DNA of 64,000 nucleotides from a virus, in IMG/VR virus record IMGVR_UViG_3300010370_000029, positions 23,474 through 87,473 of that record; one strand, written 5' to 3'. Position 1 is the stretch's first letter, and every line of letters begins with the position of its first letter. The position numbers were made by a program, and so were the translations under genes. Shown in pieces: positions 8,357 through 61,152 of the stretch. The notes under the pieces are model-generated. The model was not told the DNA's origin and made no database searches. It saw nothing but the letters and a program-made list of their open reading frames with translations.

Positions 8357-10882
8357 ATGTATCAGGCAATTTACATTGAACGTGGTGAAGGATTTGGCAA
8401 CGATACCGTGCATTTATGGGATGACGAGCTAGGGTATCAGACCATTCCTTATAATAAATTTGATTATGCGTATAAGCCCGACCGCAATGGGCAATTCATC
8501 AGCATGACTGGTGTGCGGTTGGCAAAGGTCAAGCGCTATAAGCGAGATGACCCATCATTATTTGAGAGCGACCTTCCCCAAGAGACTCGCGTGCTCACCG
8601 ATTTATATCTGAACGAGGATAACGTTTCCCAAGGGCATAAGACGATGTTTTTCGACATCGAAGTGTCTATGGAAAATGGCGTGCCAAATATTGAGAATCC
8701 GAACAATGAAATTACGTCCATTGCGGTATATGACTCGGTGACGCAGGAATATACGGTATTGGTACTGGACAAGGCGGGAGTTCAACCAAGTCGTGAGTAT
8801 GATAATGTTAAGGTCGTAATGTATACATCGGAATTGGACTTGCTCTATGGATTTTTGGACCTGTATGAGCAGATTGGACCGACGATTGTTACTGGATGGA
8901 ATAGTGACTTTTTCGACATCCCATATCTCTATCATCGTATCAAGCAGCAGTGTGGACCAAATACCGCCGGTCGGTTGAGTCCGATTGGAAAGATTAAGTA
9001 TTCCAAGTTCCGTAGTCGGTACCAGATTGCGGGCGTATCTTCTCTAGACTATTTGACATTATATAAGAAGTTCACCTACACTCAACAGCCGAATTATCGT
9101 TTAGATACGATTGGTCGGTTGGAGGTGGGCATGGGAAAGGTCGAATATCAAGGGTCGCTCGATGAATTGTTCCGTAATGATTTGGAGAAGTTCATTGAGT
9201 ACAATCTTCAAGACGTACGCATCATCGTAGAGATGGACAAGAAGCTCAAGCTGATTGAGCTCGTTCGTGGTATTTGTCATTTGGGTCACGTTTCATATGA
9301 AGATTATTGGTTTAGTTCGAAGTTCTTGGAAGGCACGATTGTAACCTATCTTCATAGAAAGGGCATCATTGTAACAAACCGACCCGCTGGTGGTCGTGAG
9401 ATGATGGATAACAAGGTAGAAAATGATGAAGAAGGATTCGCTGGTGCGTTTGTGAAGGAACCGAATCCCGGTCTATATGAATGGGTCTATTCCCTCGACT
9501 TACAATCGCTGTATCCATCTATCATTATGAGTCTCAATATCAGCCCCGAAACCAAGATTGGATTTGTGACCAATTGGAATGTGGACAAGCATGCGGCTGG
9601 TGATATGCAGGAATATTTGATTCGTGGTACAACTGATGAGGAAGTGGTACGGTTGAGCCGTGAAGCGTTCTTGAAATATATGAAGATGGAAAGTCTGATG
9701 ATTAGTTCCAACGGCGTTCTATATAATGGAGGTGCGGTGGGGATTATTCCCGAAGTACTCGACAAGTGGTTCGCAGAACGCGTGGAATATAAGAATCTGA
9801 TGAAGAAATATAAGAATGAGGGTAATACCGAATTGGCTGAGTTCTACGACCGCCGACAGCACATTCAAAAGATTTTCTTGAATTCATTGTATGGTGTTCT
9901 TGGGCTGCCCATCTTCCGTTTCTTTGATATTGACAATGCACTTGCCGTCACCGCGTCTGGTCAAGATGTGATTAAGAAGTCTGCGGCGTTTGCCAATGAC
10001 TTGTATTGTTCAAAGCTGGAAGAGCAGAAAGATTATTGTACGTATATCGATACAGATTCGTTGTACTTCTCAGCAACTCCATTAATGCCAGAAACAGCAT
10101 CACAGAAAGAATTTACTATCAAGTTGGCTCGTGCGATGGAGAAGAAGCTGAACGAGTATTATAACGAAATGGCTGAACAGCTGTTCTTCTGTAAGAATCA
10201 TCGGTTGTATATCAAGGGTGAATCCGTTGCTCAGACCGCTATCTGGATTGCGAAGAAGCGGTATGCGATGAACGTGGTTTATGATTTGGAATCCAATCTT
10301 GAAGTGGCAAACAAGATGAAGGTCAAGGGATTGGATGTGGTTCGTTCATCGTTCCCGCCGGCGTTCCGTGACTTTATGAATAAGATGATGAAGGACATCT
10401 TGAATAAGGCAACGAAGGAAGAGATTGACCAAAAGGTACTGACGTTCCGTGATTCGATGGATAGTATGTCGTATCTGGAAGTCGCCAGAAACACGGCGGT
10501 CAAGAATATCTCTGAATATGATTTACGGACGGGGAAGCTAAACGATTTCCGTAAGGGAACTCCCGCCCACGTAAAGGCAGCAATCACCTATAATTCTTTG
10601 TTGAAGCATTTCAAGATTCAAAATAAATATGAAGCTATTTCGGATGGGGAAAAAGTGAAATGGTTATATCTGAAACAGAATCCGTGGAATCTCGAAGCGG
10701 TCGCTGTCAAGGGATATAATGACCCTCAGGAAATCGTTGAGATAGTAAATACTTATATTGATTATAATGCATTATTTGAGAACGAATTGCAGAAGAAATT
10801 AGAAGATTTTTATTCGGCATTGAAATGGGGTAATATACCCACCGAAGTTAATCAGAATGCTCAGGAATGGTTTAGTTTTTGA
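8357..10882 (+). CDS. family B DNA polymerase (gp43-like)
   Basis: Exo DIE, GWN..FFD, YN.QD; Pol DLQSLYPS, K..LNSLYG, YIDTDS, KKRY; no intein seen. Confidence 0.96.
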   Translation: MYQAIYIERGEGFGNDTVHLWDDELGYQTIPYNKFDYAYKPDRNGQFISMTGVRLAKVKRYKRDDPSLFESDLPQETRVLTDLYLNEDNVSQGHKTMFFDIEVSMENGVPNIENPNNEITSIAVYDSVTQEYTVLVLDKAGVQPSREYDNVKVVMYTSELDLLYGFLDLYEQIGPTIVTGWNSDFFDIPYLYHRIKQQCGPNTAGRLSPIGKIKYSKFRSRYQIAGVSSLDYLTLYKKFTYTQQPNYRLDTIGRLEVGMGKVEYQGSLDELFRNDLEKFIEYNLQDVRIIVEMDKKLKLIELVRGICHLGHVSYEDYWFSSKFLEGTIVTYLHRKGIIVTNRPAGGREMMDNKVENDEEGFAGAFVKEPNPGLYEWVYSLDLQSLYPSIIMSLNISPETKIGFVTNWNVDKHAAGDMQEYLIRGTTDEEVVRLSREAFLKYMKMESLMISSNGVLYNGGAVGIIPEVLDKWFAERVEYKNLMKKYKNEGNTELAEFYDRRQHIQKIFLNSLYGVLGLPIFRFFDIDNALAVTASGQDVIKKSAAFANDLYCSKLEEQKDYCTYIDTDSLYFSATPLMPETASQKEFTIKLARAMEKKLNEYYNEMAEQLFFCKNHRLYIKGESVAQTAIWIAKKRYAMNVVYDLESNLEVANKMKVKGLDVVRSSFPPAFRDFMNKMMKDILNKATKEEIDQKVLTFRDSMDSMSYLEVARNTAVKNISEYDLRTGKLNDFRKGTPAHVKAAITYNSLLKHFKIQNKYEAISDGEKVKWLYLKQNPWNLEAVAVKGYNDPQEIVEIVNTYIDYNALFENELQKKLEDFYSALKWGNIPTEVNQNAQEWFSF

Positions 10883-10889
10883 TATTTAT
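10881..10889 (+). promoter_or_regulatory. putative late-type promoter motif
   Basis: GATATTTAT upstream of the TonB-dependent receptor. Confidence 0.45.
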
Positions 10890-10947
10890 TTATTCACCCC
10901 TAGCGTCGAGCCACCCACAGACGGGGCTCGGTTATAGAGACTCTCTT

Positions 10948-13900
10948 ATGAGAAAAATGTTGGAAATTCTTTTAGCAACTGCGATGTTGTCTACCTCCGC
11001 TTATGCGCAAATCACCAGCGGAATCCTTCGTGGTACGGTTAAAGATTTTACAGGTAGTACAATTGAAAATGCAAATGTTACTGTGGTCTTTGTTCCAACC
11101 AATCAACGAATTGTTACGAAAACGACAACAGAAGGTCGGTTCACATTATCCAACTTAAAACCAGGTGGTCCATATACTGTATCGGTGACCGCATTGGGGT
11201 TCCGTCCAAAGTTTACGGATAATCTCACAGTTCGTTTGGGTGAAGCAACAAGCACAGATATTGAAATGGAAAAAATTGTTGTAGTATTAAATCAAGTATC
11301 GGTTATTGCAGACGTAGCAGCACAGGCACGTAAAGATGGTGCGGTGGCACAACTCAATCAAGAGAAGTTGCAAGTGCTTCCCACCCTATCTCGTAGTCTC
11401 CAAGATATGACCCGTATGACCCCACAAGGTAACGGGGTTTCTTTTGCGGGTTCCAACTATCGGTATAACAACTTGACGATTGATGGAGCAGCATCGAATG
11501 ATGCGTTCGGATTCAGTCAATCATCAGGTCAATCCACCGCATCAGTTCCAACGGGAACACCTGGTTCTCTTTCACGTTCACAACCTATTTCGCTTGACGC
11601 CATCGAACAAGTATCTGTGGTCATCGCACCCTATGATGTGAAGATTGGTAATTTCACAGGTGGTAGCGTGAATGCAGTTACTCGTTCAGGTACCAACACC
11701 ACCGAAGGTTCCATCTACTCATTCGGTCGTGTTCCACAATTTATCGGTGATGGTATCTCTGGTAAAATGCCAACCACCTTTAATGAATATCAAGCAGGTG
11801 GTCGTATCGGTGGTCCTATTATCAAGGACAAGTTGTTCTACTTTTTGAATTTTGAAATTGCACGTAGAGCAGACCCTATCCTATTTGCACCTGGTAATCC
11901 AGGCGTGTTAGCCACGGAAGCAGTTGCACAACAAGTTCGTGATAGTCTGGTGTCATTCGCAGCACGCTCTGGTGTTCCAAACTTTGATGCAGGAACCTTT
12001 GGGGCATATGATATTGAAGCAAATAGTGAAAAGTATTTCGGTCGTGTGGATTGGAATATTGGGAACTCTATCTTGACGGTTCGTAGTAATCTTGTCAATG
12101 CAGTCGCAGGAAACTTGGAACGTGGACAAGCGCTCACCAAGTTAGCCTCACAAGACTTCGACCATTTCAGTAGAGCTACCAACACCGTTGCTGAATTGAA
12201 ATCACAACTTGGAACAGGAGTATCTAATAGTTTGTTGTTAGGATATTCACTTGTTCGTGACCACAGAAATCCATATGGTAATGTGTTCGCACCACAAATT
12301 GAAATCCAAGATATTCAGTTTGGTCAAATCAATGCAGGTAGTGACCGTGAAGGGGTGGTGTATGGCACCAAAGTTCGCACCTATGAAGTGACTAACAATC
12401 TCACATGGTCTGTGGGGAAGCATACCCTTACCGCTGGTACTCACAATGAGTTCTACAATATTCAATACACCTTCGTGAATGGATACGCCGGTCGTTGGCA
12501 ATACGCAAATCTCGCATCGTTCTTCGCAAATCGTCCTAATCGTATCAGAGCAACATTTGATTTGACGGATAATAGTTTAGATTATGTATTGAACAACCCA
12601 GGAGCAAACTTTAATATCACCGTTCCAAGTGTGTATATCCAAGACGAAGTATCTGTCACCGACAACTTCAAGGTGACCGCAGGGGTTCGTGCAGACTGGA
12701 ATATGATGGATACACCAGTTCAAGCAGATGCGTTTACGAACATCACTCTCACGAACGGCACCAAACCATATAGTACCATCACCAACGATTATAGTAGAAG
12801 TTTGTTGATTGGTCCTCGTTTCGGATTCAACTGGCAAACAGACAGAGTGACTTATCGTGGTGGGGTTGGATATTTTCAAGGAAGAATGCCGTTCGCATGG
12901 TATGCCTATCCATTCATCCACAACGGATTGATTGTAGGAAACATTGATGCAAGACCAACCAATGTGGTTCCGTTGATTGTGGACCCACTTCGTCAAAGTT
13001 CATTGAGTAGCACCACGACATATGAAATGAATGTGATCGGGAACAAGTATGTTCAACCACAGATGCGTAGAATGAACTTGGCAACAGACATCAAGTTACC
13101 ATTTGATGCATTACTTGTACTGGATTGGACATTCACCAAGACATTAAACGACATCGTATTCACGAACATCGGATTACCCGCACCCGCAGGTAATCTCGCA
13201 GGTGGTGACCGCAGACCAGTCTACACCTCAACCAGATTAACAACCACTACAACTAATCCATACACATCAGTATTCGCACTCAATAATACTGATAAGGGTT
13301 ACAGATACAACGTCACAGCAAATCTCAGTAAGAAGTGGGACCACCTTGATGTGATGGCAGCATATAGTTATGGGGAAGCAAAGGATTTGGCAAACGGTCA
13401 ACGCAACTCGTTCCAATCACACGTGGAATACAATCAATTGGTGAAGGGTAACCAATATGACCTCACGTGGTCTAACTTTGATATTCGTCATCGTTTCGTG
13501 GTGAATGGTAGTTGGAACTGGAAGAACACCACCGTATCAGCAGTCTATACAGGTTCATCAGGTTCACCATTCTCCTATGTGTATTCTGGTGATTTAAATG
13601 GTGACGGGTCAAGTCATAATGATTTGTTGTATGTTCCACGCAATATTGATGAAATCAAGTTGGTTCCATCTGCTCGTCCTACGGGTCAAGTAGATACCAG
13701 AACAGCACAACAAATCTGGGAAGATTTAGATAGATTCATCAGTAATGACCCATATCTGTCCTCACATCGTGGTGAATACACCAAGAGAAACGGTGCAAGA
13801 ACTCCGTGGAATCACCGAGCAGATGTTCGTATCATCCAATCAGTCAAGAATGTAGATATTACATTTGACATCACTAACTTCGGTAATCTGTTGAACAAGG

Positions 13901-14085
13901 ATTGGGGTAAGTATTATTTCGTTCCAAATCTTAATAATCAAAATGTCTATCCACTCCAATATCGTTCAGGTCGTGGTGTGAATAGCGTTCCAACATTTAG
14001 TTTCGACCCACTAAATACCACTTATCAGACAGATGATTTAATGTCTCGTTGGCAGATGCAAGTGGGGATTCGAGTTAACTTCTAA
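10948..14085 (+). CDS. TonB-dependent receptor, Oar-like (N-terminal carboxypeptidase-regulatory-like domain, plug, beta-barrel)
   Basis: Signal peptide ending AYA-Q; plug motifs NNLTIDG, PISLDAIE, GNFTGGSVNAVTRSGTN; YIQDE; C-terminal QVGIRVNF; 1045 aa. Confidence 0.9.
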   Translation: MRKMLEILLATAMLSTSAYAQITSGILRGTVKDFTGSTIENANVTVVFVPTNQRIVTKTTTEGRFTLSNLKPGGPYTVSVTALGFRPKFTDNLTVRLGEATSTDIEMEKIVVVLNQVSVIADVAAQARKDGAVAQLNQEKLQVLPTLSRSLQDMTRMTPQGNGVSFAGSNYRYNNLTIDGAASNDAFGFSQSSGQSTASVPTGTPGSLSRSQPISLDAIEQVSVVIAPYDVKIGNFTGGSVNAVTRSGTNTTEGSIYSFGRVPQFIGDGISGKMPTTFNEYQAGGRIGGPIIKDKLFYFLNFEIARRADPILFAPGNPGVLATEAVAQQVRDSLVSFAARSGVPNFDAGTFGAYDIEANSEKYFGRVDWNIGNSILTVRSNLVNAVAGNLERGQALTKLASQDFDHFSRATNTVAELKSQLGTGVSNSLLLGYSLVRDHRNPYGNVFAPQIEIQDIQFGQINAGSDREGVVYGTKVRTYEVTNNLTWSVGKHTLTAGTHNEFYNIQYTFVNGYAGRWQYANLASFFANRPNRIRATFDLTDNSLDYVLNNPGANFNITVPSVYIQDEVSVTDNFKVTAGVRADWNMMDTPVQADAFTNITLTNGTKPYSTITNDYSRSLLIGPRFGFNWQTDRVTYRGGVGYFQGRMPFAWYAYPFIHNGLIVGNIDARPTNVVPLIVDPLRQSSLSSTTTYEMNVIGNKYVQPQMRRMNLATDIKLPFDALLVLDWTFTKTLNDIVFTNIGLPAPAGNLAGGDRRPVYTSTRLTTTTTNPYTSVFALNNTDKGYRYNVTANLSKKWDHLDVMAAYSYGEAKDLANGQRNSFQSHVEYNQLVKGNQYDLTWSNFDIRHRFVVNGSWNWKNTTVSAVYTGSSGSPFSYVYSGDLNGDGSSHNDLLYVPRNIDEIKLVPSARPTGQVDTRTAQQIWEDLDRFISNDPYLSSHRGEYTKRNGARTPWNHRADVRIIQSVKNVDITFDITNFGNLLNKDWGKYYFVPNLNNQNVYPLQYRSGRGVNSVPTFSFDPLNTTYQTDDLMSRWQMQVGIRVNF

Positions 14086-14108: not shown

Positions 14109-14137
14109 TTGACAGAACAGGGGGTGTATGATATATT
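14109..14137 (+). promoter_or_regulatory. sigma70-type promoter
   Basis: TTGACA-17-TATATT. Confidence 0.75.
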
Positions 14138-14153
14138 TCATACATCCCCTTTT
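14119..14153 (+). terminator. intrinsic terminator overlapping the promoter
   Basis: 13-bp stem AGGGGGTGTATGA/TCATACATCCCCT with loop TATATT, followed by T-run. Confidence 0.65.
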
Positions 14154-14167
14154 CTATGGAGATTGAT

Positions 14168-14290
14168 ATGTTGTTCAAGATTGGTGTGGTTCTCGTTTGT
14201 GCGTTCGCAATCTTTGTTATCTTTAGTGCAATCTACGCTCACATCTCTTACGCTCTTCTAAAGATTGACGAGGAGAGGAATAACCTATGA
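14168..14290 (+). CDS. small membrane peptide (40 aa)
   Basis: GGAG RBS; MLFKIGVVLVCAFAIFVIFSAIY...; ATGA overlap with the next ORF. Confidence 0.6.
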   Translation: MLFKIGVVLVCAFAIFVIFSAIYAHISYALLKIDEERNNL

Positions 14291-14358
14291 ACTTTGGACT
14301 AAAGATTTTCCTCATCAGTGTTGTGGTCATGTACATTCTTGACAAGGTAATCAAATGA
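14287..14358 (+). CDS. small membrane peptide (23 aa)
   Basis: GAGG RBS; MNFGLKIFLISVVVMYILDKVIK; ATGA overlaps at both ends. Confidence 0.5.
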   Translation: MNFGLKIFLISVVVMYILDKVIK

Positions 14359-15461
14359 AAATCGTAAAGTCTAGTGATTGGCTTATTTCGGAAAACAAGG
14401 CTGGTGGTGAGAAGTTCTGGCGGTTGCATATCCTCCAAGATAACAAAGAAGGAGGATTTTATACGCAGACGGAATGGTTTCAGATTAGTAAGACAGGCCG
14501 TGAAACCAAACGACAGTTCTCTTCACCCTATTATGCCGAACCCACGAATGTCGGTCGGTCAAACGAGCGTAACTCTGAGCAGCAGGCAGAGTTTGAGTTT
14601 GACGCCGTAATCAAGAAGCAGAAGGACAAGGGATTCCGTGCGAAGGGTGAGCGAAAGAATGTTCGTCCGATGCCGATGCTTGCACATAAGTTTACGGACC
14701 ACAAGAAGAAGGTAAATTTTCCTGCATACATTCAGCCCAAGTTGAATGGTATGCGTATGTTGTTTGACGGAGAGAACGGATGGAGCCGTGGAAATAAGGA
14801 AGTGATTCCCGAAGTCATTCAGCACTTGAAGTTTGACACAGGTGGGTTTATACTTGATGGTGAGTTGATGCTTCCGAACAATCAGCTCCTTCAAGAGAGT
14901 ATGAAGGCAATCAAGAAGTATCGCCCAGAGTTGTCCTCACAACTTCTCTATCACGTTTATGATATCGTAGATGAGGAACTTCCGTATGTGAAGCGTCATC
15001 AGTTGATTCTGGACATTTGTGCGAATGCACCGAAGAATGTCAAGATTGTCAAGACTGTTCGGGCAGATGATGAATCACAGGTATCTCACCTTCATAATCT
15101 CTTTGTCCAAGACGGATACGAGGGAACGATGATTCGTGATGAGGAAATGAAGTATGAGATTGGCAAGCGTTCGTATTCACTACTTAAACTAAAGGACTTT
15201 ACAGATGCAGAGTATCGTATTGTTGATGTTGTTGACGGCGACGGTAGTGATGTCGGCCTCGCCATTTTTGAATTGGAGACTGATTCTGGTGCACGTTTCA
15301 ATTGCCGTCCAGAGGGTTCGCAGGAGAATCGTGCAGACCTATTCAAGAATCGTCGTCAGTTGGTTGGCAAGTATCTGACGGTTAGGTACTTTGAGTTGAG
15401 TAAGGACGGTATTCCGATTTTCCCCGTGGGTGTATCTATTCGTGAGTGGGGTGAATTCTAA
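14355..15461 (+). CDS. ATP-dependent DNA ligase
   Basis: PMLA, QPKLNG (motif I), LDGEL, YDIV, EGTMIR, LLKLK, OB domain ending P.FP. Confidence 0.92.
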   Translation: MKIVKSSDWLISENKAGGEKFWRLHILQDNKEGGFYTQTEWFQISKTGRETKRQFSSPYYAEPTNVGRSNERNSEQQAEFEFDAVIKKQKDKGFRAKGERKNVRPMPMLAHKFTDHKKKVNFPAYIQPKLNGMRMLFDGENGWSRGNKEVIPEVIQHLKFDTGGFILDGELMLPNNQLLQESMKAIKKYRPELSSQLLYHVYDIVDEELPYVKRHQLILDICANAPKNVKIVKTVRADDESQVSHLHNLFVQDGYEGTMIRDEEMKYEIGKRSYSLLKLKDFTDAEYRIVDVVDGDGSDVGLAIFELETDSGARFNCRPEGSQENRADLFKNRRQLVGKYLTVRYFELSKDGIPIFPVGVSIREWGEF

Positions 15462-21992: not shown

Positions 21993-23660
21993 ATGGCTGG
22001 GCTGACCCTCGTATCATCAGGAGCAAACGTCAAGTCGTGGACGTTTGATAAAATTTCTAAGGAGTATAGTACTACTCTCGTAGACACGCCAAAGTATCAG
22101 CGACCGGATGTGTTCGGCTTTGTACGGAACGGCAGCGGTAGTAATTGGCAGCGTAATCTCATCCGTTCTATTTTGATGGGCAATCCCATCCCTCAGCTCC
22201 ACTTTCGCTACGTATTCTCAAAGGGGCCAAATGGTCTAGAGTGGAAGTATGAGATTGTGGACGGAGGACATCGCACACGTACTGTATATTACTTTCTAAA
22301 CAATTGCATTAAAACTCCAATTGACTGTACGCTTACCGATGTTGACGGGAACCAGTACAACATTGGTGCTATGCATCTTTCACAGATTATACAGAAGTAT
22401 CCTGTGCTAGAGGATTACATCTATAATCTTTCTCTTAGCGTTGTAGAGTATGAAAATCTCACCGATGATGATGCAGAAACACTTTTTCTTACTCTTAATG
22501 ATTTGAACAAGATGTCTCCCGCTGACAAGCGGAACGCTATTAATAATATTATTGCGGATACGAACCGTAATCTTGGTGCGGTTGACTCCCCTAACGCTTT
22601 TTCGATGTTCACCAGCCGTTCATTCATTAAGAACGATTGGAAGGCTGACTACACCAGCTTGGATGCAGTCAGCCGAGAGTCGGATGAAATTGTATCGTGG
22701 GCGATGTACTATCTATACAGCGGTGGTATATTTGCAAAAGACTCCAGCGGAAAGCCGCGGTTCGCGGGTATGGACGCCCAATCAGTTCTCGACAAGATGT
22801 ATCGTGACGAGTATCTTATGAGGGAGTTGGCGGTACCGGGGTCTAAGATGGAAAAGAATCTGCGGTCACTACTGTCAATTGTTAATAATATTGTCGTTAA
22901 GAATCCGCGTCTTGATATTTTTAAAAAGGGCGGAAAGTGGTTCGCTGGTCCTCTAAAGAAGCTTATTATGCTAGTCGCTGAGATGCACAATGTAAACGGT
23001 ACTTTTAACTTTAGTAAAGTTAAAATTAATACCGACGACTTCTTTACCTCTTTCAATCGAGCGACCAGCGAACTGAAGAACGACAAGAACGTAAAGCCAC
23101 ACCTGCCATACCAGTCGTATATGCTGGTAAACAACAAGGTTCACGTAAATAGCGTTCAGCCGGATAATGTTGGTGATACAATATATCCGTTCCATAAAGT
23201 GTTTACGGGAGGCGCTCGACTTGACGATATGCTGTACATCTATTATCATTACGTCACCAAGGGTTATATGAATTTTGGAGTTACGAAATTGGATAAGCGT
23301 CGAGACTTTAATAAGGATATCGTAGATACTCTACTCACGGAACAGAAGAATTGCTGCCGGTTTTGCTCAAAGTTACTCACGGATGGTAATTACGCGGTAG
23401 ACCACATTGCTCCGCATTCTTTTGGTGGACCTACAATTCTGGAAAACAGCCAGATTCTCTGTTCTTCTTGTAACGGTCAGAAGTCGAATGGCATGACACT
23501 CCAAGATGTGGTACATCTCTGTGAGAGAATGAACGTAGACGTTCAACTTAAGGAAGTTGTAGTTGGACTGGCTCACGCAGTTATTACCTCTGGCGCAACT
23601 GACCGACTCTCGGAAGGTGATATCCGTACAGTAATTAAGCTGGTATTTGGCAAACAATAA
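21993..23660 (+). CDS. DUF262 (ParB/Srx-like) + HNH nuclease, GmrSD-like
   Basis: PKYQR, LIRSIL.G.PIP, IVDGGHR, F..LN; C-terminal CRFC..DHI.P...GG....NSQILCSSCN. Confidence 0.8.
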   Translation: MAGLTLVSSGANVKSWTFDKISKEYSTTLVDTPKYQRPDVFGFVRNGSGSNWQRNLIRSILMGNPIPQLHFRYVFSKGPNGLEWKYEIVDGGHRTRTVYYFLNNCIKTPIDCTLTDVDGNQYNIGAMHLSQIIQKYPVLEDYIYNLSLSVVEYENLTDDDAETLFLTLNDLNKMSPADKRNAINNIIADTNRNLGAVDSPNAFSMFTSRSFIKNDWKADYTSLDAVSRESDEIVSWAMYYLYSGGIFAKDSSGKPRFAGMDAQSVLDKMYRDEYLMRELAVPGSKMEKNLRSLLSIVNNIVVKNPRLDIFKKGGKWFAGPLKKLIMLVAEMHNVNGTFNFSKVKINTDDFFTSFNRATSELKNDKNVKPHLPYQSYMLVNNKVHVNSVQPDNVGDTIYPFHKVFTGGARLDDMLYIYYHYVTKGYMNFGVTKLDKRRDFNKDIVDTLLTEQKNCCRFCSKLLTDGNYAVDHIAPHSFGGPTILENSQILCSSCNGQKSNGMTLQDVVHLCERMNVDVQLKEVVVGLAHAVITSGATDRLSEGDIRTVIKLVFGKQ

Positions 23661-24928: not shown

Positions 24929-25773
24929 TGGAAACAACCTTCGTTGAGACTTCCCGTGTCACGGTGCGAGAAATATCGAAATCCGTGGCACGAGATTTCA
25001 TTCAGACTCATCACTATACACATAAGTTCAGTTCCACCCGATATGCCCTTGGGGTATTTTATGTGGAAGATGCCGAACATATATTCTTTGCTGGTGCGAA
25101 CGAGAAGCTCATTGGGTGTATGACCTATGGGCATCCCGTCAGCAATAGAACGGTGGATAGTATTGTGGATGGATTGGAACTTGACGAAGTGCTAGAATTG
25201 ACCCGCTTGGTGTGCTTGGACGGATATGGAAAGAATCTGGAAAGTTTTGTGATTTCCAAATCGTTTGAGTGGATGAAGAAGCATGACCCCAAGGTGAAAG
25301 TCTTGGTCAGTTATGCTGACCCCGAACAAGCACATACCGGCGGGATTTATCGGGCAACGAATTGGCTGTATCAAGGATGTGGGTATTCCAAGTTGATGCC
25401 AGATTTCAGTATCCGAATCAATGAAGATGACCTCTGGACGCATAGCCGTACCGTTGGAGCCCGTTGGGGTAATAAGTCGGTGGATAATCTGGCAAAGACT
25501 ATTGGTCAAACCTTCTATAGAAAAGAAGAAACGGCAAAACATCGGTATATCTATTTCCTTTGTGGGAAGAAGGAACGGAAACGGATGATAAAGGAATTAA
25601 AGATTCCCGTGTTCGGATATTCAGAAATCAAGCCGTATACCCAACTGATTCAGAAGGTGCATGTAAAGGATGGAGTAGTTGAACGTATTGAAATCCTGCA
25701 AGGGGTTGACAATGGCTGGTCAAACAAACAGATTGTAATGCAGGAGGATGAAGATGGCGAAGACTCTATTTGA
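24928..25773 (+). CDS. Mom-family DNA base-modification enzyme (second copy)
   Basis: FI..HHY, LELTRL, KNLESFVIS, LVSYADPEQAHTGGIYRATNWLYQG, KHRYIY. Confidence 0.8.
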   Translation: METTFVETSRVTVREISKSVARDFIQTHHYTHKFSSTRYALGVFYVEDAEHIFFAGANEKLIGCMTYGHPVSNRTVDSIVDGLELDEVLELTRLVCLDGYGKNLESFVISKSFEWMKKHDPKVKVLVSYADPEQAHTGGIYRATNWLYQGCGYSKLMPDFSIRINEDDLWTHSRTVGARWGNKSVDNLAKTIGQTFYRKEETAKHRYIYFLCGKKERKRMIKELKIPVFGYSEIKPYTQLIQKVHVKDGVVERIEILQGVDNGWSNKQIVMQEDEDGEDSI

Positions 25774-26185
25774 CCACATTAATGCAATTTATCAAGACCA
25801 GAAGAAGAACTATTTCGCTGGATTGGACGATGGGGAGAAACGGACCTATAGTAACTATATGGTCAACCGATTCCTCAGTATGAACATTCATCAGCTTCCG
25901 CTGGTCAATGAGATACAAAAATACAATTTACCATCCGATGTTCACTATTTATTCTTTGCGACCACGATTCCTCGCGGGAAGCAATATAACAAATATGTAA
26001 AGTCAAAGAACGAAACCAAGTATGAAGGTTGGTTAGTCACACTGGTTTCGAAGCATTTTACTGTGTCTGAAAGTGAAGCGATGATGTATTTGGATATTTA
26101 TTATGGGGAACATAAGGACGCCCTTCGGAGTTTATGTGAGGGGTATGGAATCGATAACAAAACACTAAAGAAAGCTAAGCTATGA
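25754..26185 (+). CDS. clamp loader small subunit (gp62-like)
   Basis: LFD.INAI, Y..YMVNRFLS, VNE.Q, YL.I motifs. Confidence 0.7.
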   Translation: MAKTLFDHINAIYQDQKKNYFAGLDDGEKRTYSNYMVNRFLSMNIHQLPLVNEIQKYNLPSDVHYLFFATTIPRGKQYNKYVKSKNETKYEGWLVTLVSKHFTVSESEAMMYLDIYYGEHKDALRSLCEGYGIDNKTLKKAKL

Positions 26186-26700
26186 CAGTAGCAACAGCAG
26201 AGAGAATGGTTACTATGGTTAAATTGACTTGGGCAGAATACTTCCGAAAAATCGCACATACAGTTAAACTGAAGTCGAAGGATAAGACTACCCAGATTGG
26301 TGCGGTTATTGTCGGTTCCAATAATGAAATCCGTTCTACGGGATACAATTCATTTCCACGTGGGATTGAAGATTTCCGTGAAGAACGGCAGGAACGTCCA
26401 GAGAAATATTATTGGATGGAACATGCTGAGCGAAATGCAATTATCAACGCCGCTCGTATTGGTGTATCAACCGACCGTTGTATTTTATTCCTAACGTGTG
26501 ACATTCCATGCGTTGATTGCACTCGTGCGATTATCAATTCTGGAATCAAGATTATATTCTGTGAACGTGGTGAAGGGGCAAAGGGTGACCACTGGAACGA
26601 ACATACCCAACGTAGTATACAGATGTTACAAGAAGCAAAGTGCACCGTTCATTATTATGGTGAAATAAAACCTTTTATTAATATTGGTGAACTACAATGA
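26182..26700 (+). CDS. dCMP deaminase
   Basis: S.D...QIGAVIV, GYN, HAERNAI, PCVDC. Confidence 0.92.
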   Translation: MTVATAERMVTMVKLTWAEYFRKIAHTVKLKSKDKTTQIGAVIVGSNNEIRSTGYNSFPRGIEDFREERQERPEKYYWMEHAERNAIINAARIGVSTDRCILFLTCDIPCVDCTRAIINSGIKIIFCERGEGAKGDHWNEHTQRSIQMLQEAKCTVHYYGEIKPFINIGELQ

Positions 26701-46773: not shown

Positions 46774-47622
46774 ATGAATATAATGGTTACGGGTGGAGCA
46801 GGATTCATTGGTACTAACTTAATTAAAAGATTACTCCGCGACGGGCATACAATAATCTCCGTTGACAATTATGATAGTGGATTGAAGAATAACGAACAGA
46901 CTGGGGCTGCCTACGTAGCCGCAGATATAACCGATATCGTACGGTTAACATCAATAAAAGTTGATTTGTGTTATCATCTGGCAGCACTATCACGCATTCA
47001 ACCATCATTTAAAAATCCATCAGAAACCTTCCGCGTCAATGTCAAAGGAACGGAAGCGGTGGCTGAATGGTGCCGCATCAATAATACAAAGTTAGTATAT
47101 GCTGGGTCATCCTCTCGTTGGCATAATCCATACCAGTCCCCCTATGCGATGTACAAGCATTTGGGAGAAGAAGTTCTAAAGATGTATAGAACTATTTACA
47201 AGACTAATTTTGAAATCGCTAGGTTCTACAATGTCTATGGTCCGCATGAAATTGTGGATGGAGACTGGGCAGCTGTAATTGGTATCTGGCGCCGTCAAGT
47301 CCGCGATGGATTGCCAATCACAATTGTCGGTGATGGAGAACAACGGCGTGATTTTACACACGTTGATGATATTGTTGATGGTCTAGTTCGTATTGGTATG
47401 TACGATGAACATCATACCGATGCATGGGAGTTGGGAACTGGAATGAACTATTCGATTAACGAAGTATACGAAATGTTTAAACAACATTTTGGAGCTGAGA
47501 AAGTCCACATTGCCGACCAACCCGGTAACTATAGACAAACATTACGAGAGAATGATGATTCATTAACACGGTTGAATTGGAAACCGTCTGATAAACTTAG
47601 GGAGTACATCAATAGTCTATGA
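46774..47622 (+). CDS. NAD-dependent sugar epimerase/dehydratase
   Basis: GGAGFIG, HLAA, YAMYK, RFYNVYGP, GDGEQRRDF. Confidence 0.92.
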   Translation: MNIMVTGGAGFIGTNLIKRLLRDGHTIISVDNYDSGLKNNEQTGAAYVAADITDIVRLTSIKVDLCYHLAALSRIQPSFKNPSETFRVNVKGTEAVAEWCRINNTKLVYAGSSSRWHNPYQSPYAMYKHLGEEVLKMYRTIYKTNFEIARFYNVYGPHEIVDGDWAAVIGIWRRQVRDGLPITIVGDGEQRRDFTHVDDIVDGLVRIGMYDEHHTDAWELGTGMNYSINEVYEMFKQHFGAEKVHIADQPGNYRQTLRENDDSLTRLNWKPSDKLREYINSL

Positions 47623-48587
47623 AAATTTTAGTAACAGGCGGAAACGGGTTCATTGGTAGTAATTTTATAGAATATATTTTAGAGAATACGGATATGGAGG
47701 TCATTAATATAGACCTCTTGACGTATGCGGGTGTCTCTCCACATCCTAAATCATCCAGATATACTTTCTATCAGATGGACATTGCCTATGATGAAGTATA
47801 TGACCTCCTCGTAAAGCACCAGCCAGATTATATTGTAAACTTTGCAGCGGAAACTCACGTTGACCGCTCAATTGAATTTCCCGATGCGTTTGTTCAAACG
47901 AATGTATTTGGAACCTATAATTTATTGCGGTGTTTATTAAAGTACCACAAGACTAATAAATTTAAATTCATACATATTTCAACTGATGAAGTCTTTGGTC
48001 AATTAAAATTAAACGATACGCCGTTTTCCGAAAAGACTCCATATTCGCCTAACAGTCCATATTCCGCTACGAAGGCATCAGCCGACCACTTGGTACGCGC
48101 GTTTCACCATACTTACGGACTTCCGGCGATTGTTACGAATTGTTCAAACAACTACGGCCCACGGCAGTTTCCAGAGAAGTTCATTCCCGTGGTTATCTTG
48201 AACGCTTATATGGACAAGCGTATTCCTGTTTATGGGTCTGGTTTTAATGTAAGAGATTGGTTACACGTAACTGACCACTGTAATGCTATTCTACGTGTTT
48301 TAGAGAGTGGTAAAATTGGTGATACGTATGTCATCGGCGGTGAATCCGAACGTACTAACATTGATGTAGCCCGACATATCTTGACGATTATGAGAAAGCC
48401 AATTTCGTTAATAGACCACGTGTTGGATAGAAAAGGACACGACTTCAGATATGCAGTTGACATTTGCCACATCAAGCACGAATTGGGATGGAGGCCTTCA
48501 ATTAAATTTCAAGATGGGTTAGTAAAAACTATTGATTGGTACTTAAACAATATGGAGTGGGTAAGGTCATGCGTAAACTTGGGATAA
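47619..48587 (+). CDS. rmlB: dTDP-glucose 4,6-dehydratase
   Basis: GGNGFIG, FAAETHVDRSI, HISTDEV, YSATK, NCSNNYGP, RKGHDFRY. Confidence 0.95.
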   Translation: MKILVTGGNGFIGSNFIEYILENTDMEVINIDLLTYAGVSPHPKSSRYTFYQMDIAYDEVYDLLVKHQPDYIVNFAAETHVDRSIEFPDAFVQTNVFGTYNLLRCLLKYHKTNKFKFIHISTDEVFGQLKLNDTPFSEKTPYSPNSPYSATKASADHLVRAFHHTYGLPAIVTNCSNNYGPRQFPEKFIPVVILNAYMDKRIPVYGSGFNVRDWLHVTDHCNAILRVLESGKIGDTYVIGGESERTNIDVARHILTIMRKPISLIDHVLDRKGHDFRYAVDICHIKHELGWRPSIKFQDGLVKTIDWYLNNMEWVRSCVNLG

Positions 48588-55761: not shown

Positions 55762-55820
55762 GAATATTAATGAAATCTTAATGTTTCTTCACTTTACTTT
55801 TACGTACGGCGGGTTATATT
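55762..55820 (+). promoter_or_regulatory. promoter with tandem 11-bp operator repeats (copy 1)
   Basis: GAATATTAATGAAATCTTAATGTTTCTTCACTTTAC; TTTACT-16-TATATT. Confidence 0.65.
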
Positions 55821-55849
55821 TCATATATAACCTCAAACGACAGGAAACT

Positions 55850-57997
55850 ATGGCTACCAAACATCACAGCTCGTATTGGATTGATGACAACTCTGTGTTC
55901 GATTTCGATTCAACCGACATTAACAAAGAGAATGATGTAAGTTCTGGTATTGACCGCGTGGTGAAGCTTGCTACGATTCGTCGAGCTATTACCAATTTCG
56001 TTCGTATTCTTACGAATGATTCGTCCATCATTGTTAAGTATTCGTCTGGTAAGGAATCGTATACGGATGGTAAGCAGGTGATTATTTCCGCCGACGATAA
56101 TCCGAAAAACTTTGACCCGATGGTGGGACTCGCTCTGCATGAGGGGTCACATTGTCTCCTTTCTGATTTCCCGTTTCTGGCACATATTTCTACGCACCAA
56201 GATGTGTTCTATGCCGCGCTTCATCCGAAGCTTCGGAAGATGGTTAAGTTGCACAAGCTGGATGCGAGTGCTTCCGATTATTATGAGAAGGAGCACCAGA
56301 ACCAGTCGGCGCTTCGTACTTTGTTCCGTCATATCAAGACGTTGATGAATGTTATTGAGGACCGCCGTATTGACTCTTATGTATATAAGATGGCACCGGG
56401 GTATCGTCCGTATTATGACGCGATGTACACCAAGTATTTCTTCAATACGGATGTGGAGAAGAATCTGAAGTATAATCGCGATTGGCGGAAGCCGACTGTT
56501 GAGAATTATGTGAATTGGCTTCTGATGATTTTTTCCCCGCACTTCGACAAGAAGGCGTTGCCGGGTCTTGGCAAGATGGTGAAGATGATTGACTTGCCGA
56601 ACATTCACCGCTTCGATGAGAAGAAGATGCCAGAGTGGACTACGTGGCGGCTGTCTCGTGATGATTCGTTAATCAACCCGATTCTCTCTTTGCGGCATCC
56701 GTCCGATACTCTGCAAGCGTATGACTATGAGCAGTTCCCGCTTCTGTGGAAGATGTCGAATGAGCTGATGATTGAGATTCTAAAGCGTGCAAAGTTCCAC
56801 GCCGATATTGAGGAAGATAGTGAGTCTAACGCGATGGATGGTCTATCTATTGAGTCCGACGAGGATACTGATGATATAAAGAATGAGGGAATGCCGAATT
56901 ACGATCTTCCCCAGAATCGATACAATGAAAAGAAGGCGAATAGTGCGATTGAAAAGATGAAGGATATGATGGACCAGACTGCGAAGAAGAAGAAGCTCAA
57001 GAAGAATGAGCAGACGCAGATTGATTCGATTGATTCTGCTTCGGCGGATATGACGGAAAACTCTGACCCGATTTATGGAAAGATTCCGTGTCTCGTCACG
57101 AAGAAGCTTACGAAGGAGATTATGGTCGCTGATTGGTTCCCGTTCGCTAATAGCTGGGCAATTCGTGACCGCCGTACGTTGAACCACGATTATAATTATA
57201 GTTATCGTGGATTCCTCAATGGGTTGAAGATGGGGCAGATTCTCGCCCACAAGTTGCAAGTTCGTAACGAGCCGCAGATTACACACTTCACTCGTCAAGA
57301 GCACGGCAAGATTGACCGCCGTATCCTCTCACAGCTGGGAATGGATATTGAGAACGTGTTCAAGCGGACTACGGTGGATTCGTACAATCCCGTCCTTCTC
57401 TATCTCTCTGTTGATGCCTCTGGCTCGATGGGTGGCAGAAAGTGGGAACGTGTAATGACGGTGATGACGGCGCTCGCCTACGCTTCCGATAAGATTCGGA
57501 ATCTCGAAGTGGTGATTTCGCTTCGTGGGAATCTTGGAACGGGTATCCCGATGGTCGCCGTGGTGTATGACAGTCGAGTGGATAACTTTGTAAAGGCGAA
57601 GGCACTGTTCCCGTATCTGTGTTCGAATGGGTCTACGCCGGAAGGTCTGTGTTATCCCGCGACGATGGACTTGATTAAGGAGTGCGCTAAGACTCACACT
57701 ACGTACTTTATCAACTTCTCTGATGGTGAGCCGGGGTGCTCATTCAAGCACAATGGTCGGCACTTTGATTATGGTGGTGAGCAGGCGTTTAAGCAGACCA
57801 AGAATTGTGTTCGAGTGATGCGAGAGATGGGTGTTCGGATTATGAGTTATTTCATCAGCGATTATCAGCACCACGAACAGTCATATATCCGTAGAATGTT
57901 TCGTACTATGTACGGACAAGAAGCGGAGTTTGTGGATGTGGCGAGTGTGGTGAATGTCCTAAAAACCTTAAATAAGCTCCTACTGGTCAAGGAATAA
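55850..57997 (+). CDS. VWA-domain protein with N-terminal HExxH domain (CobT-like MoxR partner)
   Basis: LHEGSH, N..EDRRID; MIDAS DASGSM, GSTPE, FSDGEP. Confidence 0.85.
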   Translation: MATKHHSSYWIDDNSVFDFDSTDINKENDVSSGIDRVVKLATIRRAITNFVRILTNDSSIIVKYSSGKESYTDGKQVIISADDNPKNFDPMVGLALHEGSHCLLSDFPFLAHISTHQDVFYAALHPKLRKMVKLHKLDASASDYYEKEHQNQSALRTLFRHIKTLMNVIEDRRIDSYVYKMAPGYRPYYDAMYTKYFFNTDVEKNLKYNRDWRKPTVENYVNWLLMIFSPHFDKKALPGLGKMVKMIDLPNIHRFDEKKMPEWTTWRLSRDDSLINPILSLRHPSDTLQAYDYEQFPLLWKMSNELMIEILKRAKFHADIEEDSESNAMDGLSIESDEDTDDIKNEGMPNYDLPQNRYNEKKANSAIEKMKDMMDQTAKKKKLKKNEQTQIDSIDSASADMTENSDPIYGKIPCLVTKKLTKEIMVADWFPFANSWAIRDRRTLNHDYNYSYRGFLNGLKMGQILAHKLQVRNEPQITHFTRQEHGKIDRRILSQLGMDIENVFKRTTVDSYNPVLLYLSVDASGSMGGRKWERVMTVMTALAYASDKIRNLEVVISLRGNLGTGIPMVAVVYDSRVDNFVKAKALFPYLCSNGSTPEGLCYPATMDLIKECAKTHTTYFINFSDGEPGCSFKHNGRHFDYGGEQAFKQTKNCVRVMREMGVRIMSYFISDYQHHEQSYIRRMFRTMYGQEAEFVDVASVVNVLKTLNKLLLVKE

Positions 57998-59881: not shown

Positions 59882-59941
59882 GAATCTTAATGAAATCTTA
59901 ATGTTCGTTCACTTTACAAATACAATTGTGTGGTGTATATT
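59882..59941 (+). promoter_or_regulatory. promoter with tandem 11-bp operator repeats (copy 2)
   Basis: GAATCTTAATGAAATCTTAATGTTCGTTCACTTTAC; TTTACA-17-TATATT. Confidence 0.65.
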
Positions 59942-59979
59942 TCAGTATAATGAAAAACTCCCCACACATTGAGGTAAGC

Positions 59980-61152
59980 ATGAACACGATGATTGTTAAG
60001 GTTCTCGACGATATGACCGCTGTTGACCCGACCGGAAAGGATGTGACCCGTAAGGTTCCTCTCCATTCCCGTAAGCGAGCACTTCAGAACGATTGTGCTC
60101 TCCGTCTGGCTACGACCAAGACAGGTAAGACGCAGTGGCGTGATACCGACCTTACCGACTACGAGGCATTGGTCAAGCAGGCCGTCCCTACCAAAAAGGT
60201 GAATAATGTGAAGAATGAGCTTGAGCAGGATGTCATTGATTTCCTCTCCAAGTGCGAGGAGTTGAAGCCCGACCATCTCATCATTTCCCCGCTCAAGTGG
60301 CGGTATCTGATGCGCTCGGTACTCCGTGGCAAGAATATTCTGATGACCGGCCCTTCGGGGTGTGGTAAGACTCTGGCGGCTCAGACTATCGCCGGTGCGC
60401 TTGACGGTCGTGAGTTCTTCTACTTCAATATCGGTGCCACCCAAGACCCGCGTTCGACGCTTATCGGTAATACCCATTATAGCAAGGACAAGGGTACGTT
60501 CGTCGCCGAGGCTCTGTTCGTCAAGGCGATTCAGACTCCGAACGCCATCATCCTTCTTGACGAGTTGACCCGTGGTCACGCTGACGCCTGGAATATTCTG
60601 ATGACGGTGCTCGACGAGAATCAGCGATATCTCCGAATTGACGAAATGCCGAATACTCCGACGATTAAGGTCGCCAATGGTGTCACCTTCATCGCTACGG
60701 CGAATATCGGAGCTGAGTATACCGCCACTCGCGTTCTTGACCGAGCGATGCTGGACCGATTCGCTTCGATTGTCGAGATGGAGCCGCTCAGTCGGTCGGA
60801 TGAGGTTACCCTTCTCCAGATGACGTATCCCGAGGTCGAGGTCAACCTTGTTGAGTCTATCGCTGAGATTGCCGACCATACCCGTCAGCAGGTTCGTAGT
60901 GAGGATCCGAAGGTCACTACCTCCATTTCGTCACGTATCACGGTCGAGATGGCTGGACTCTTGAATGACGGATTCTCGCTCGCTGAGACGGCTGAGGCCT
61001 GTATCTACCCCTTCTTCTCGAACGCCGGTGGGAACGACTCTGAGCGAACCTACATGCGACAGCTCGTCCAGAAGTACCTCCCCGTGGAGGGTGGGGCCGA
61101 GACTCCGTGGCAGTCGGTCACGGATACCACTAATAATAACTCTAATTTCTAA
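59980..61152 (+). CDS. MoxR/CbbQ/CobS-type AAA+ ATPase
   Basis: GPSGCGKT, LLDELTR, ATANIG, DRAMLDRF, SSR; GAGG RBS before ATG 59980. Confidence 0.9.
   Translation: MNTMIVKVLDDMTAVDPTGKDVTRKVPLHSRKRALQNDCALRLATTKTGKTQWRDTDLTDYEALVKQAVPTKKVNNVKNELEQDVIDFLSKCEELKPDHLIISPLKWRYLMRSVLRGKNILMTGPSGCGKTLAAQTIAGALDGREFFYFNIGATQDPRSTLIGNTHYSKDKGTFVAEALFVKAIQTPNAIILLDELTRGHADAWNILMTVLDENQRYLRIDEMPNTPTIKVANGVTFIATANIGAEYTATRVLDRAMLDRFASIVEMEPLSRSDEVTLLQMTYPEVEVNLVESIAEIADHTRQQVRSEDPKVTTSISSRITVEMAGLLNDGFSLAETAEACIYPFFSNAGGNDSERTYMRQLVQKYLPVEGGAETPWQSVTDTTNNNSNF

Follow-up and report, generated by a model that had tools for sequence, protein, structure and literature searches.

To our knowledge, outer-membrane transporters have seldom been described from phages, and for none of them has a function been tested. 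The megaphage Mar_Mega_1 possesses a SusC-like TonB-dependent transporter (TBDT), which was read as a carbohydrate-uptake gene (PMC9723777). Genes for outer-membrane proteins of huge phages, including a 22-strand TonB-dependent receptor of a Lak phage, are transcribed in nature, and receptor interference has been discussed for these proteins (bioRxiv 10.64898/2026.10.24.761521). Here we describe a TBDT gene located between a family B DNA polymerase (PolB) gene and an ATP-dependent DNA ligase gene of the virus record IMGVR_UViG_3300010370_000029 from IMG/VR. The window is the whole stretch of 64,000 nucleotides that was analysed, positions 23,474 to 87,473 of that record, and coordinates refer to it. 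Similar to the receptors of Mar_Mega_1 and the Lak phage, the window gene encodes a full-length phage TBDT, of a kind read as serving uptake or outer-membrane remodelling. However, those transporters are SusC-like or linked to Bacteroidota and belong to phages larger than 200 kb, whereas the one of the window is of the Oar type, is related to Gemmatimonadota sequences and lies in a swappable cassette.

Phage TBDTs represent a known but rare kind of gene, in agreement with the rarity supposed in the original prediction, which was made from the sequence alone. A tblastn search of 50,697 GenBank phage records returned one match, a 6-kb faecal fragment with 30% identity, and BFVD holds one full TBDT fold, A0A8D9FQQ5 of Mar_Mega_1 (Foldseek E 2.6e-30 to the model of the window protein). 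New in the present case are the Oar-type architecture combined with a Gemmatimonadota ancestry, selection on a phage TBDT as strong as on replication genes, and a cassette bounded by the signal peptide that shows allelic replacement and spread between phages. Like the window protein, members of the Oar subclass described for Myxococcus xanthus (PMC6434023) are about 1,000-1,100 amino acids (aa) long and combine a signal peptide and the PF13620 extension with a plug containing a TonB box and with a large barrel. Unlike Oar of M. xanthus, which exports PopC, the window TBDT has no linked cargo, is phage-borne and has its sister genes in Gemmatimonadota.

The open frame of the TBDT extends from 10879 to 14085 on the plus strand, and translation from the first ATG, at 10948, yields 1045 aa before the stop codon. 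The protein starts with MRKMLEILLATAMLSTSAYAQ and ends with GIRVNF. The original prediction of an intact 1045-aa TBDT between PolB and ligase was right, with the coding sequence at 10948-14085 (+) and both neighbours confirmed by PHROG and Pfam. Signal peptide, plug and terminal Phe, which were part of the same prediction, are all present and conserved, the plug being recognised by profile and by fold. Pfam assigns residues 27-108 to the carboxypeptidase-regulatory-like family CarboxypepD_reg (PF13620, E 8.9e-18) and detects OMP_b-brl_4 (PF25183), a family of large outer-membrane barrels, with E 1e-39. The Pfam family Plug (PF07715) gave no match in the window TBDT at E <= 0.01, and NCBIfam and PHROGs returned nothing usable for this protein.

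Residues 1-21 (10948..11010, +) correspond, as read from the translation, to a signal peptide with the sequence MRKMLEILLATAMLSTSAYA and a cut between AYA and the following Q. The junction AQ-[IV]TSG, present in the window as AYA-QITSG, is invariant in 24 aligned phage and Gemmatimonadota copies. The N-terminal extension (residues 22-110; 11011..11277, +) matches PF13620 and is all-beta in the structural model, with a predicted local distance difference test (pLDDT) score of about 80-89. It is followed by a flexible linker (residues 111-128, pLDDT <50), which contains the strand LNQVSVIA (residues 114-121; 11287..11310, +). This strand fits the pattern L-x-x-V-x-V-x-[AGS], kept in the phage, Gemmatimonadota, Bacteroidota and clade B viral copies (clade B is described below), and it constitutes a TonB-box-like element ahead of the plug; binding of TonB to it is putative. 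The plug domain occupies about residues 129-278 (11332..11781, +), where a profile match to the PqqU/YncD plug coincides with the full-length Foldseek alignments, and is the most conserved region of the protein. The remainder (11782..14082, +) forms a beta-barrel with long loops and a terminal Phe, which matches PF25183 as given above and solved TBDTs with template modelling (TM) scores (target) of 0.63-0.80. The C-terminal sequence SRWQMQxGxRxxF is common to phage and cellular copies, the window protein ending in SRWQMQVGIRVNF, and the terminal Phe, the C-terminal aromatic beta-signal, is near-invariant (at least 90% of 123 aligned sequences).

A first AlphaFold2 run on a 20-sequence alignment reached pLDDT 59 and was poor in the plug; it was replaced by a run on a 123-sequence alignment, with pLDDT 87.8 and a predicted TM score (pTM) of 0.85. 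This model supplies the structure prediction that had been proposed as a check. It matches solved TBDTs over its whole length, with FusA (4zgv, E 9e-31) and YddB (6ofr, E 4e-28) at the top, followed by siderophore, haem and colicin receptors. FusA and YddB share with the window protein a plug-in-barrel fold over the whole mature protein, with TM (target) of 0.63 and 0.70. They differ in the absence of the carboxypeptidase-like extension and in an identity of 11-12%, a distance at which the substrate is not transferable. An earlier and narrower profile search of the PDB gave nothing at E <= 0.001, and the wider family profile gave weak matches to the plug of PqqU and YncD (E 4e-5), to a barrel segment of Cir and to carboxypeptidase-like domains. 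DSSP assigned 23-24 long strands in the model, part of which lie in loops, so that the number does not count the strands of the barrel itself. Loops were classed from DSSP only as long loops versus short turns, irrespective of extracellular or periplasmic side.

The window protein is confirmed as a TonB-dependent transporter. By its domain architecture, it falls within the Oar subclass of PMC6434023. We rejected a SusC/RagA-type transporter of a polysaccharide utilisation locus, since the gene is followed by a terminator, two small hydrophobic open reading frames (ORFs) and the ligase gene, with no SusD-type gene, and since the corresponding NCBIfam match reached only 18 bits against a cut-off of 645.

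Several observations identify the TBDT gene as genuine phage cargo. The PolB-TBDT junction recurs in at least six contigs (L002, L003, L004, L007, L074 and L084) and the TBDT-ligase junction in at least three (L002, L003 and L074). At least five different metagenomes are represented by these contigs, with a protein identity of 87-97%. The guanine-cytosine (GC) content of the gene equals that of the phage (0.42). An assembly chimera was rejected on the recurrent junctions, the phage composition and the lack of a near-identical cellular gene; the original prediction had likewise argued against a chimeric assembly. It had also named near-identity to a chromosomal gene without phage homologues as the finding that would speak against phage cargo, and what was found is the reverse, bacterial genes at 55-61% identity and many phage-borne homologues. 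With cellular ancestry, phage flanks and purifying selection, the gene has the features of a host-derived auxiliary gene of the phage, which may be expressed during infection with an effect on metabolism.

The ancestry of the TBDT was examined in a search space of 5.8 billion proteins. Sequences with 61-97% identity to the window TBDT are of a low-GC type and 1041-1051 aa long, those with 49-61% are of the Gemmatimonadota type, and all remaining sequences lie at about 43% and below. Among reference genomes, the best matches were metagenome-assembled genomes (MAGs) of Gemmatimonadaceae and Gemmatimonadales, with 55-61% identity, and Bacteroidota reached only 31-40%. No claim made here draws on G062, G102 or G162, which are flagged as unpublished. 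At the nucleotide level, the gene and its copy in a Gemmatimonadaceae MAG are 66-73% identical. The chromosomal TBDTs of Gemmatimonadaceae (L022-L028) share with the phage copies the 55-61% identity over the full length, the domain order, the loop lengths, the AQ-ITSG junction and the C-terminal SRWQMQxGxRxxF. In contrast to the phage copies, they are 20-70 aa longer, have a GC of 0.57-0.68 and stand alone on the chromosome, without other phage-like genes, whereas the phage copies have a GC of 0.42, phage codon preferences, and a phage leader and terminator.

Trees were built with FastTree on 166 sequences and with IQ-TREE on 53, and their topologies agree. The phage TBDT copies form one clade (support 100) within the Gemmatimonadota clade (support 98), with Gemmatimonas-type sequences basal; the comparison with host TBDTs suggested in the original prediction thus places the phage clade among the Gemmatimonadota copies. 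Composition effects may be present in these trees, but such bias would draw the phage clade away from the high-GC Gemmatimonadota, opposite to what was observed. The protein hits P0004-P0010 fall within the phage clade and have a GARP/FYMINK ratio of 0.81-0.90, compared to 1.09-1.61 in Gemmatimonadota. From their tree position, length and amino-acid make-up, we infer that they are of phage origin. As far as sequence comparison can show it, an ancestor of the phage group captured the TBDT from Gemmatimonadota.

The gene is part of a self-contained cassette, in which a promoter-like motif and a leader hairpin precede the signal peptide and mature protein, and a terminator follows. Its boundaries became visible by comparison with contig L104, a close relative whose PolB and ligase are each 88% identical to those of the window. 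Between these two genes, L104 possesses a different TBDT of 905 aa, with the domains PF13620, Plug (PF07715) and PF00593/PF14905. DNA homology between the window and L104 includes the end of PolB, the motif TATTTATTTATT and CACCCCT, as well as the leader hairpin, the region of ribosome binding and the codons for the signal peptide; it ends at the AQ cleavage site and returns directly after the last stop codon of the cassette, at the terminator. On its 5' side, the cassette has its recombination boundary at the signal peptide. In the protein search, all named matches of the L104 TBDT were Gemmatimonadaceae, and among 301 genomes sampled its nearest cellular relatives, again Gemmatimonadota, were found in G299 (72%), G280 (71%) and G015 (69%). 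These three genomes match the Oar-type window protein at just 32-33%, so that the two cassettes derive from different lineages of one phylum. Genes for a GT2 glycosyltransferase and a calcineurin-like metallophosphoesterase (L104:13929-15372) lie 3' of the L104 TBDT, as part of the alternative cassette.

The mature Oar-type protein is also present in other phage backbones. In contigs L072, L075, L076 and L093 it is 96-98% identical and located between homologues of the window genes 25748-26185 and 26182-26700, in a backbone whose core genes share only 47-82% identity with the window genes. The TBDT, as mature protein, also occurs in L001 (97%) and L085, which represent an unrelated phage with unmatched neighbours, including another ligase type, PhoH and an exonuclease; this copy has a different signal peptide. 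In a further clade with 74% identity (contigs up to 105 kb), the TBDT gene directly follows a class II ribonucleotide reductase (RNR) gene and precedes a gene for a CxxC thioredoxin-like protein. Contig L079 harbours a copy with 78% identity in yet another context; a sequence directly after this copy (L079:13127-13260) resembles by eye the 3' end of a tRNA (GGTTCGATTCC). Such arrangements show, at the sequence level, that the TBDT moves between phage backbones and that a TBDT of another type takes its place in the slot. The original prediction had missed the mobile cassette bounded at the cleavage site, its replacement by another TBDT in L104, and the structural codon style described below.

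Tentatively, and with some doubt on our part, the leader and signal peptide may act as a docking site, at which TBDTs of the host phylum are swapped by recombination at the cleavage site and then passed between unrelated co-infecting phages. If true, these phages would re-equip infected Gemmatimonadota cells with a transporter or receptor surface that is rewarding locally, and the pay-off would be nutrient uptake or control over the entry of other phages. It would also count among the first cases in which a gene links a group of phages to Gemmatimonadota as hosts.

A related TBDT was found in a second group of viral contigs, L013 and L015-L018, hereafter clade B. These contigs have a GC of 0.29-0.34 and reach 195 kb, and their TBDTs are 36-38% identical to that of the window. 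Besides the TBDT, L016 shares seven genes (39-67%) and L015 two genes with the window phage. The clade B viral TBDTs form a separate clade that is sister to low-GC sequences, one of which carries the label of a Bacteroidetes MAG. Joining both viral clades costs 428 log-likelihood units, and the approximately unbiased (AU) test rejects a single viral clade (p = 7.3e-7), which indicates that clade B acquired a related TBDT independently. The gene directly 3' of the TBDT encodes a signal peptide or a lipoprotein-like N-terminus in L013, L015, L016 and L017; the one of L016 encodes 528 aa and has no Pfam match. Its product may act at the surface as a partner of the TBDT. In PolB relatives at a greater distance (42-46%), no TBDT lies within 10 kb of PolB.

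Selection on the TBDT was estimated from the ratio of non-synonymous to synonymous substitutions (dN/dS), as the original prediction had proposed. Pairwise values among phage copies are 0.05-0.11, and 0.036-0.041 for two recently exchanged copies. For the same pairs, values of 0.045-0.097 were obtained for PolB, 0.05-0.10 for RNR and 0.04-0.12 for DnaB, so that the TBDT is under purifying selection at the level of PolB and RNR; dS is saturated for distant pairs, and only pairs with dS <1 are firm. Agreement between the phage and Gemmatimonadota consensus sequences is highest in the plug (0.81), followed by the long loops (0.71), barrel strands (0.66), N-terminal extension (0.56) and signal peptide (0.43), and the loop lengths are kept between phage and Gemmatimonadota copies. 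Conservation of plug and loops fits retained substrate binding and gated transport.

The putative expression signals of the gene are also conserved in related phages. The promoter-like motif TATTTATTTATT (10883..10894, +), read in the sequence, stands directly after the PolB stop codon and belongs to a class concentrated in intergenic DNA. The TATTTAT motif (10883-10893) is kept in L104 and L072 and changed in L002. The original prediction had proposed TATTTAT as a phage promoter, which was partly borne out. The motif is not enriched in the whole window (26 copies versus 19.4 ± 4.8 expected). Nonetheless, 11 of the 30 plus-strand copies in the record fall within intergenic DNA, which makes up 6.8% of the sequence, and nine of these eleven precede a gene start by 31-65 nt, among them the starts of tail-fibre, RNR and TBDT genes. 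The 5' leader contains a hairpin (10906..10931, +; -15.5 kcal/mol), with a z-score that is weak alone (-1.4). Its pairing is maintained via three differing stems, in the window, in L002 and L072, and in L104; the hairpin may stabilise the transcript or have a regulatory role. Neither the leader nor the gene gave a credible match in Rfam, which rules out a known riboswitch.

Downstream of the gene, an intrinsic terminator (14119..14150, +) consists of a 13-bp stem followed by TTTTCT, with compensatory stem changes in L002, L003 and L104, and confirms the terminator proposed originally. A sigma70-like promoter (14109-14137, +; TTGACA-17-TATATT, with TG) overlaps the terminator and reads into the ligase unit. 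The proposed domestication under phage-type signals agrees with these results, as the signals that flank the TBDT are those of the phage and are conserved in relatives. From its sequence, the TBDT may constitute a moron-like unit, with a well supported terminator and a candidate promoter. Similar to the lambda morons Lom and Bor, it is an accessory gene for an outer-membrane protein, with its own promoter-like signal and terminator, between essential phage genes. Unlike Lom, an 8-strand barrel expressed from the prophage, the window protein is a TBDT located in a T4-like replication module, with no lysogeny genes seen.

The A-ending codons described in the original prediction do exceed those of the replication neighbours, as the proportion of A at four-fold sites is 0.35 in the TBDT and 0.19-0.28 in these neighbours. 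They are no foreign mark, however, since structural genes of the phage reach 0.37-0.41 and the TBDT ranks 23rd among 63 genes. Foreign codon usage as a sign of recent capture was rejected, and the gene follows the phage's "late or structural" codon style. Two codon classes were observed across the record, replication genes with G/T-ending codons (four-fold A 0.15-0.28), and tail or structural genes together with the TBDT with A/T-ending codons (0.34-0.44).

The reading that we favour, and to which we give about half of our belief, is that the TBDT is a mobile, selected auxiliary uptake cassette that would depend on the TonB of the host. During infection, host Sec would export the protein, host BAM would fold it into the outer membrane, and host TonB-ExbBD would energise it via the TonB box. 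The infected cell would then gain an extra or different uptake of a scarce substrate that limits phage production. Expression, outer-membrane insertion, TonB coupling and import as the selected function are presumed steps of this reading. The folds of FusA and YddB, together with the protein handling of Oar, hint by analogy at a large substrate, as a lead only at 11-12% identity. A number of observations weigh against the uptake cassette. The conserved loops are equally expected if a phage receptor-binding protein recognises them. The neighbourhood of the orthologue in Gemmatimonadaceae (RND efflux, a two-component system and phosphoenolpyruvate (PEP) mutase) gives no hint of a substrate, and the 87-kb record fragment contains no TonB_C or ExbB gene, so that the TBDT must fit the system of the host. 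The GC of the phage (0.42) is 15-25 points under that of the putative host phylum. No match resembling a spacer of clustered regularly interspaced short palindromic repeats (CRISPR) was found between about 80 kb of phage DNA and the 301 Gemmatimonadota genomes. Finally, L001 has an in-frame TAG (L001:10526-10528) where the window has TTG (Leu176), in a copy whose remainder has a dN/dS of 0.036; a recent knockout could explain this codon, as could an error of sequencing or recoding of the stop.

A different use of the same protein would be superinfection control, in which the phage TBDT edits the receptor landscape by masking or displacing host outer-membrane proteins, or by competing for TonB, and blocks later phages or bacteriocins. 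We regard this main rival as possible, though rather unlikely. It agrees with the swap of the cassette in a close relative and its hops between co-occurring phages, as at arms-race loci, with the moron-like organisation under an own promoter-like motif and terminator, with the conserved TonB-box motif, and with the receptor interference proposed for huge-phage outer-membrane proteins (preprint 10.64898/2026.10.24.761521). Yet no diversifying selection was seen, given a dN/dS of 0.04-0.11 and long loops as conserved as the strands. Neither titration nor masking needs a conserved plug or conserved loops, which weakens pure TonB titration or a decoy, short of eliminating them. That no lysogeny genes were seen also counts against superinfection control, a weak point in a record that is only 46% complete. 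At the other extreme, it appears barely credible that the gene stems from a chimeric assembly or from contamination by host DNA, or that it is a passenger in decay without function. The TAG of L001 and the linear, fragmentary record would suit such readings, but the same junctions occur in contigs of at least five samples, GC and codon usage are phage-like, identity to the nearest cellular genes does not exceed 61%, dN/dS is low, at the level of PolB, and the flanking phage signals are conserved.

Two more specific activities are improbable in our judgement. The TBDT could import a cofactor for phage enzymes, either iron or a corrinoid for a B12-dependent RNR, since the phage encodes a class II RNR with a B12-type insertion domain and, in the 74% clade, the TBDT lies between RNR and the thioredoxin-like gene. 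Nevertheless, the protein is of the Oar type with about 1,000 aa and not BtuB-like, BtuB ranking 46th among the fold matches, and the leader contains no cobalamin riboswitch or other Rfam element. Moreover, the TBDT does not adjoin RNR in the window and in two further backbones, and the slot in L104 holds a different TBDT. Even less credit is given to an Oar-like export, by which a protein of phage or host origin would leave through the outer membrane ahead of lysis, comparable to Myxococcus Oar and its protease PopC. Such export is suggested by the architecture of the Oar subclass, with CarboxypepD_reg, TonB-box plug and large barrel (PMC6434023), and by the top fold match FusA, which recognises a protein, ferredoxin. 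However, the likeness to Oar is one of architecture, no candidate cargo gene accompanies the cassette across its four or five contexts, and the replacement in L104 is of the classical Plug/TonB_dep_Rec type and not of the PF25183 type.

The original prediction had implied a diderm host, which was borne out, and the two independent cassettes point specifically to Gemmatimonadota. From the ancestry of both cassettes, we infer that Gemmatimonadota are the likeliest host of the phage. Gemmatimonadota are described as common in lakes and soils, with few cultured members (PMC11651109). In the comparison with the 301 Gemmatimonadota genomes, the phage DNA matched only at the TBDT, a GDP-mannose dehydratase gene and collagen-like repeats. 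An exact match of 24 nt in G019 was rejected as a spacer, as it lies within a glutaredoxin-like gene and belongs to no array. The TBDT gene would provide a concrete, host-linked marker for phages of Gemmatimonadota. Strong selection, at least two captures from two phyla and cassette exchange argue that refitting the outer membrane of the host pays in nutrient-poor fresh water, and the results suggest that a freshwater phage group refits the surface of the infected cell. Leader and signal peptide, conserved in front of a mature part that can be exchanged, also offer a natural system for comparing transporter types in one phage background.

The phage record is a linear contig of 87,473 bp with a CheckV completeness of 46%, and the full genome may be about twice the size of this fragment. 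The first 23 kb of the record contain collagen-like tail-fibre genes and other large genes. Genes of the T4-like replication module around the TBDT encode gp32-like and RecA/UvsX-like proteins, a 5'-3' exonuclease, a DnaB-like helicase, the class II RNR, PolB and, after the TBDT, the ligase. PolB (8357..10882, +) was identified by phrog_262 (E 1.5e-184), PF00136 and PF03104, and the ATP-dependent DNA ligase (14355..15461, +) by phrog_114 (E 2e-67), PF01068 and PF14743. The two small hydrophobic ORFs between the terminator and the ligase gene (14169..14357, +), of 40 aa and 22 aa, were read from the sequence, and the 40-aa ORF is kept in L002, L003 and L104.

Among the sugar-nucleotide and glycosyltransferase genes of one block (about 30-50 kb), a GDP-mannose 4,6-dehydratase-like gene (47619-48587) aligns to genes in 40 of the 301 genomes of Gemmatimonadota, the only phylum compared, with 66-76% nucleotide identity and short pieces of up to 84%. 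Two further genes are of unusual composition, with a third-position A of 0.06-0.08 and a local GC of about 0.49. They encode a 738-aa protein without Pfam match (55781-57997) and a MoxR-like AAA ATPase (59926-61152). Since homologues of the two occur in the low-GC phage contigs L015 and L109, they represent a conserved pair across the phage group.

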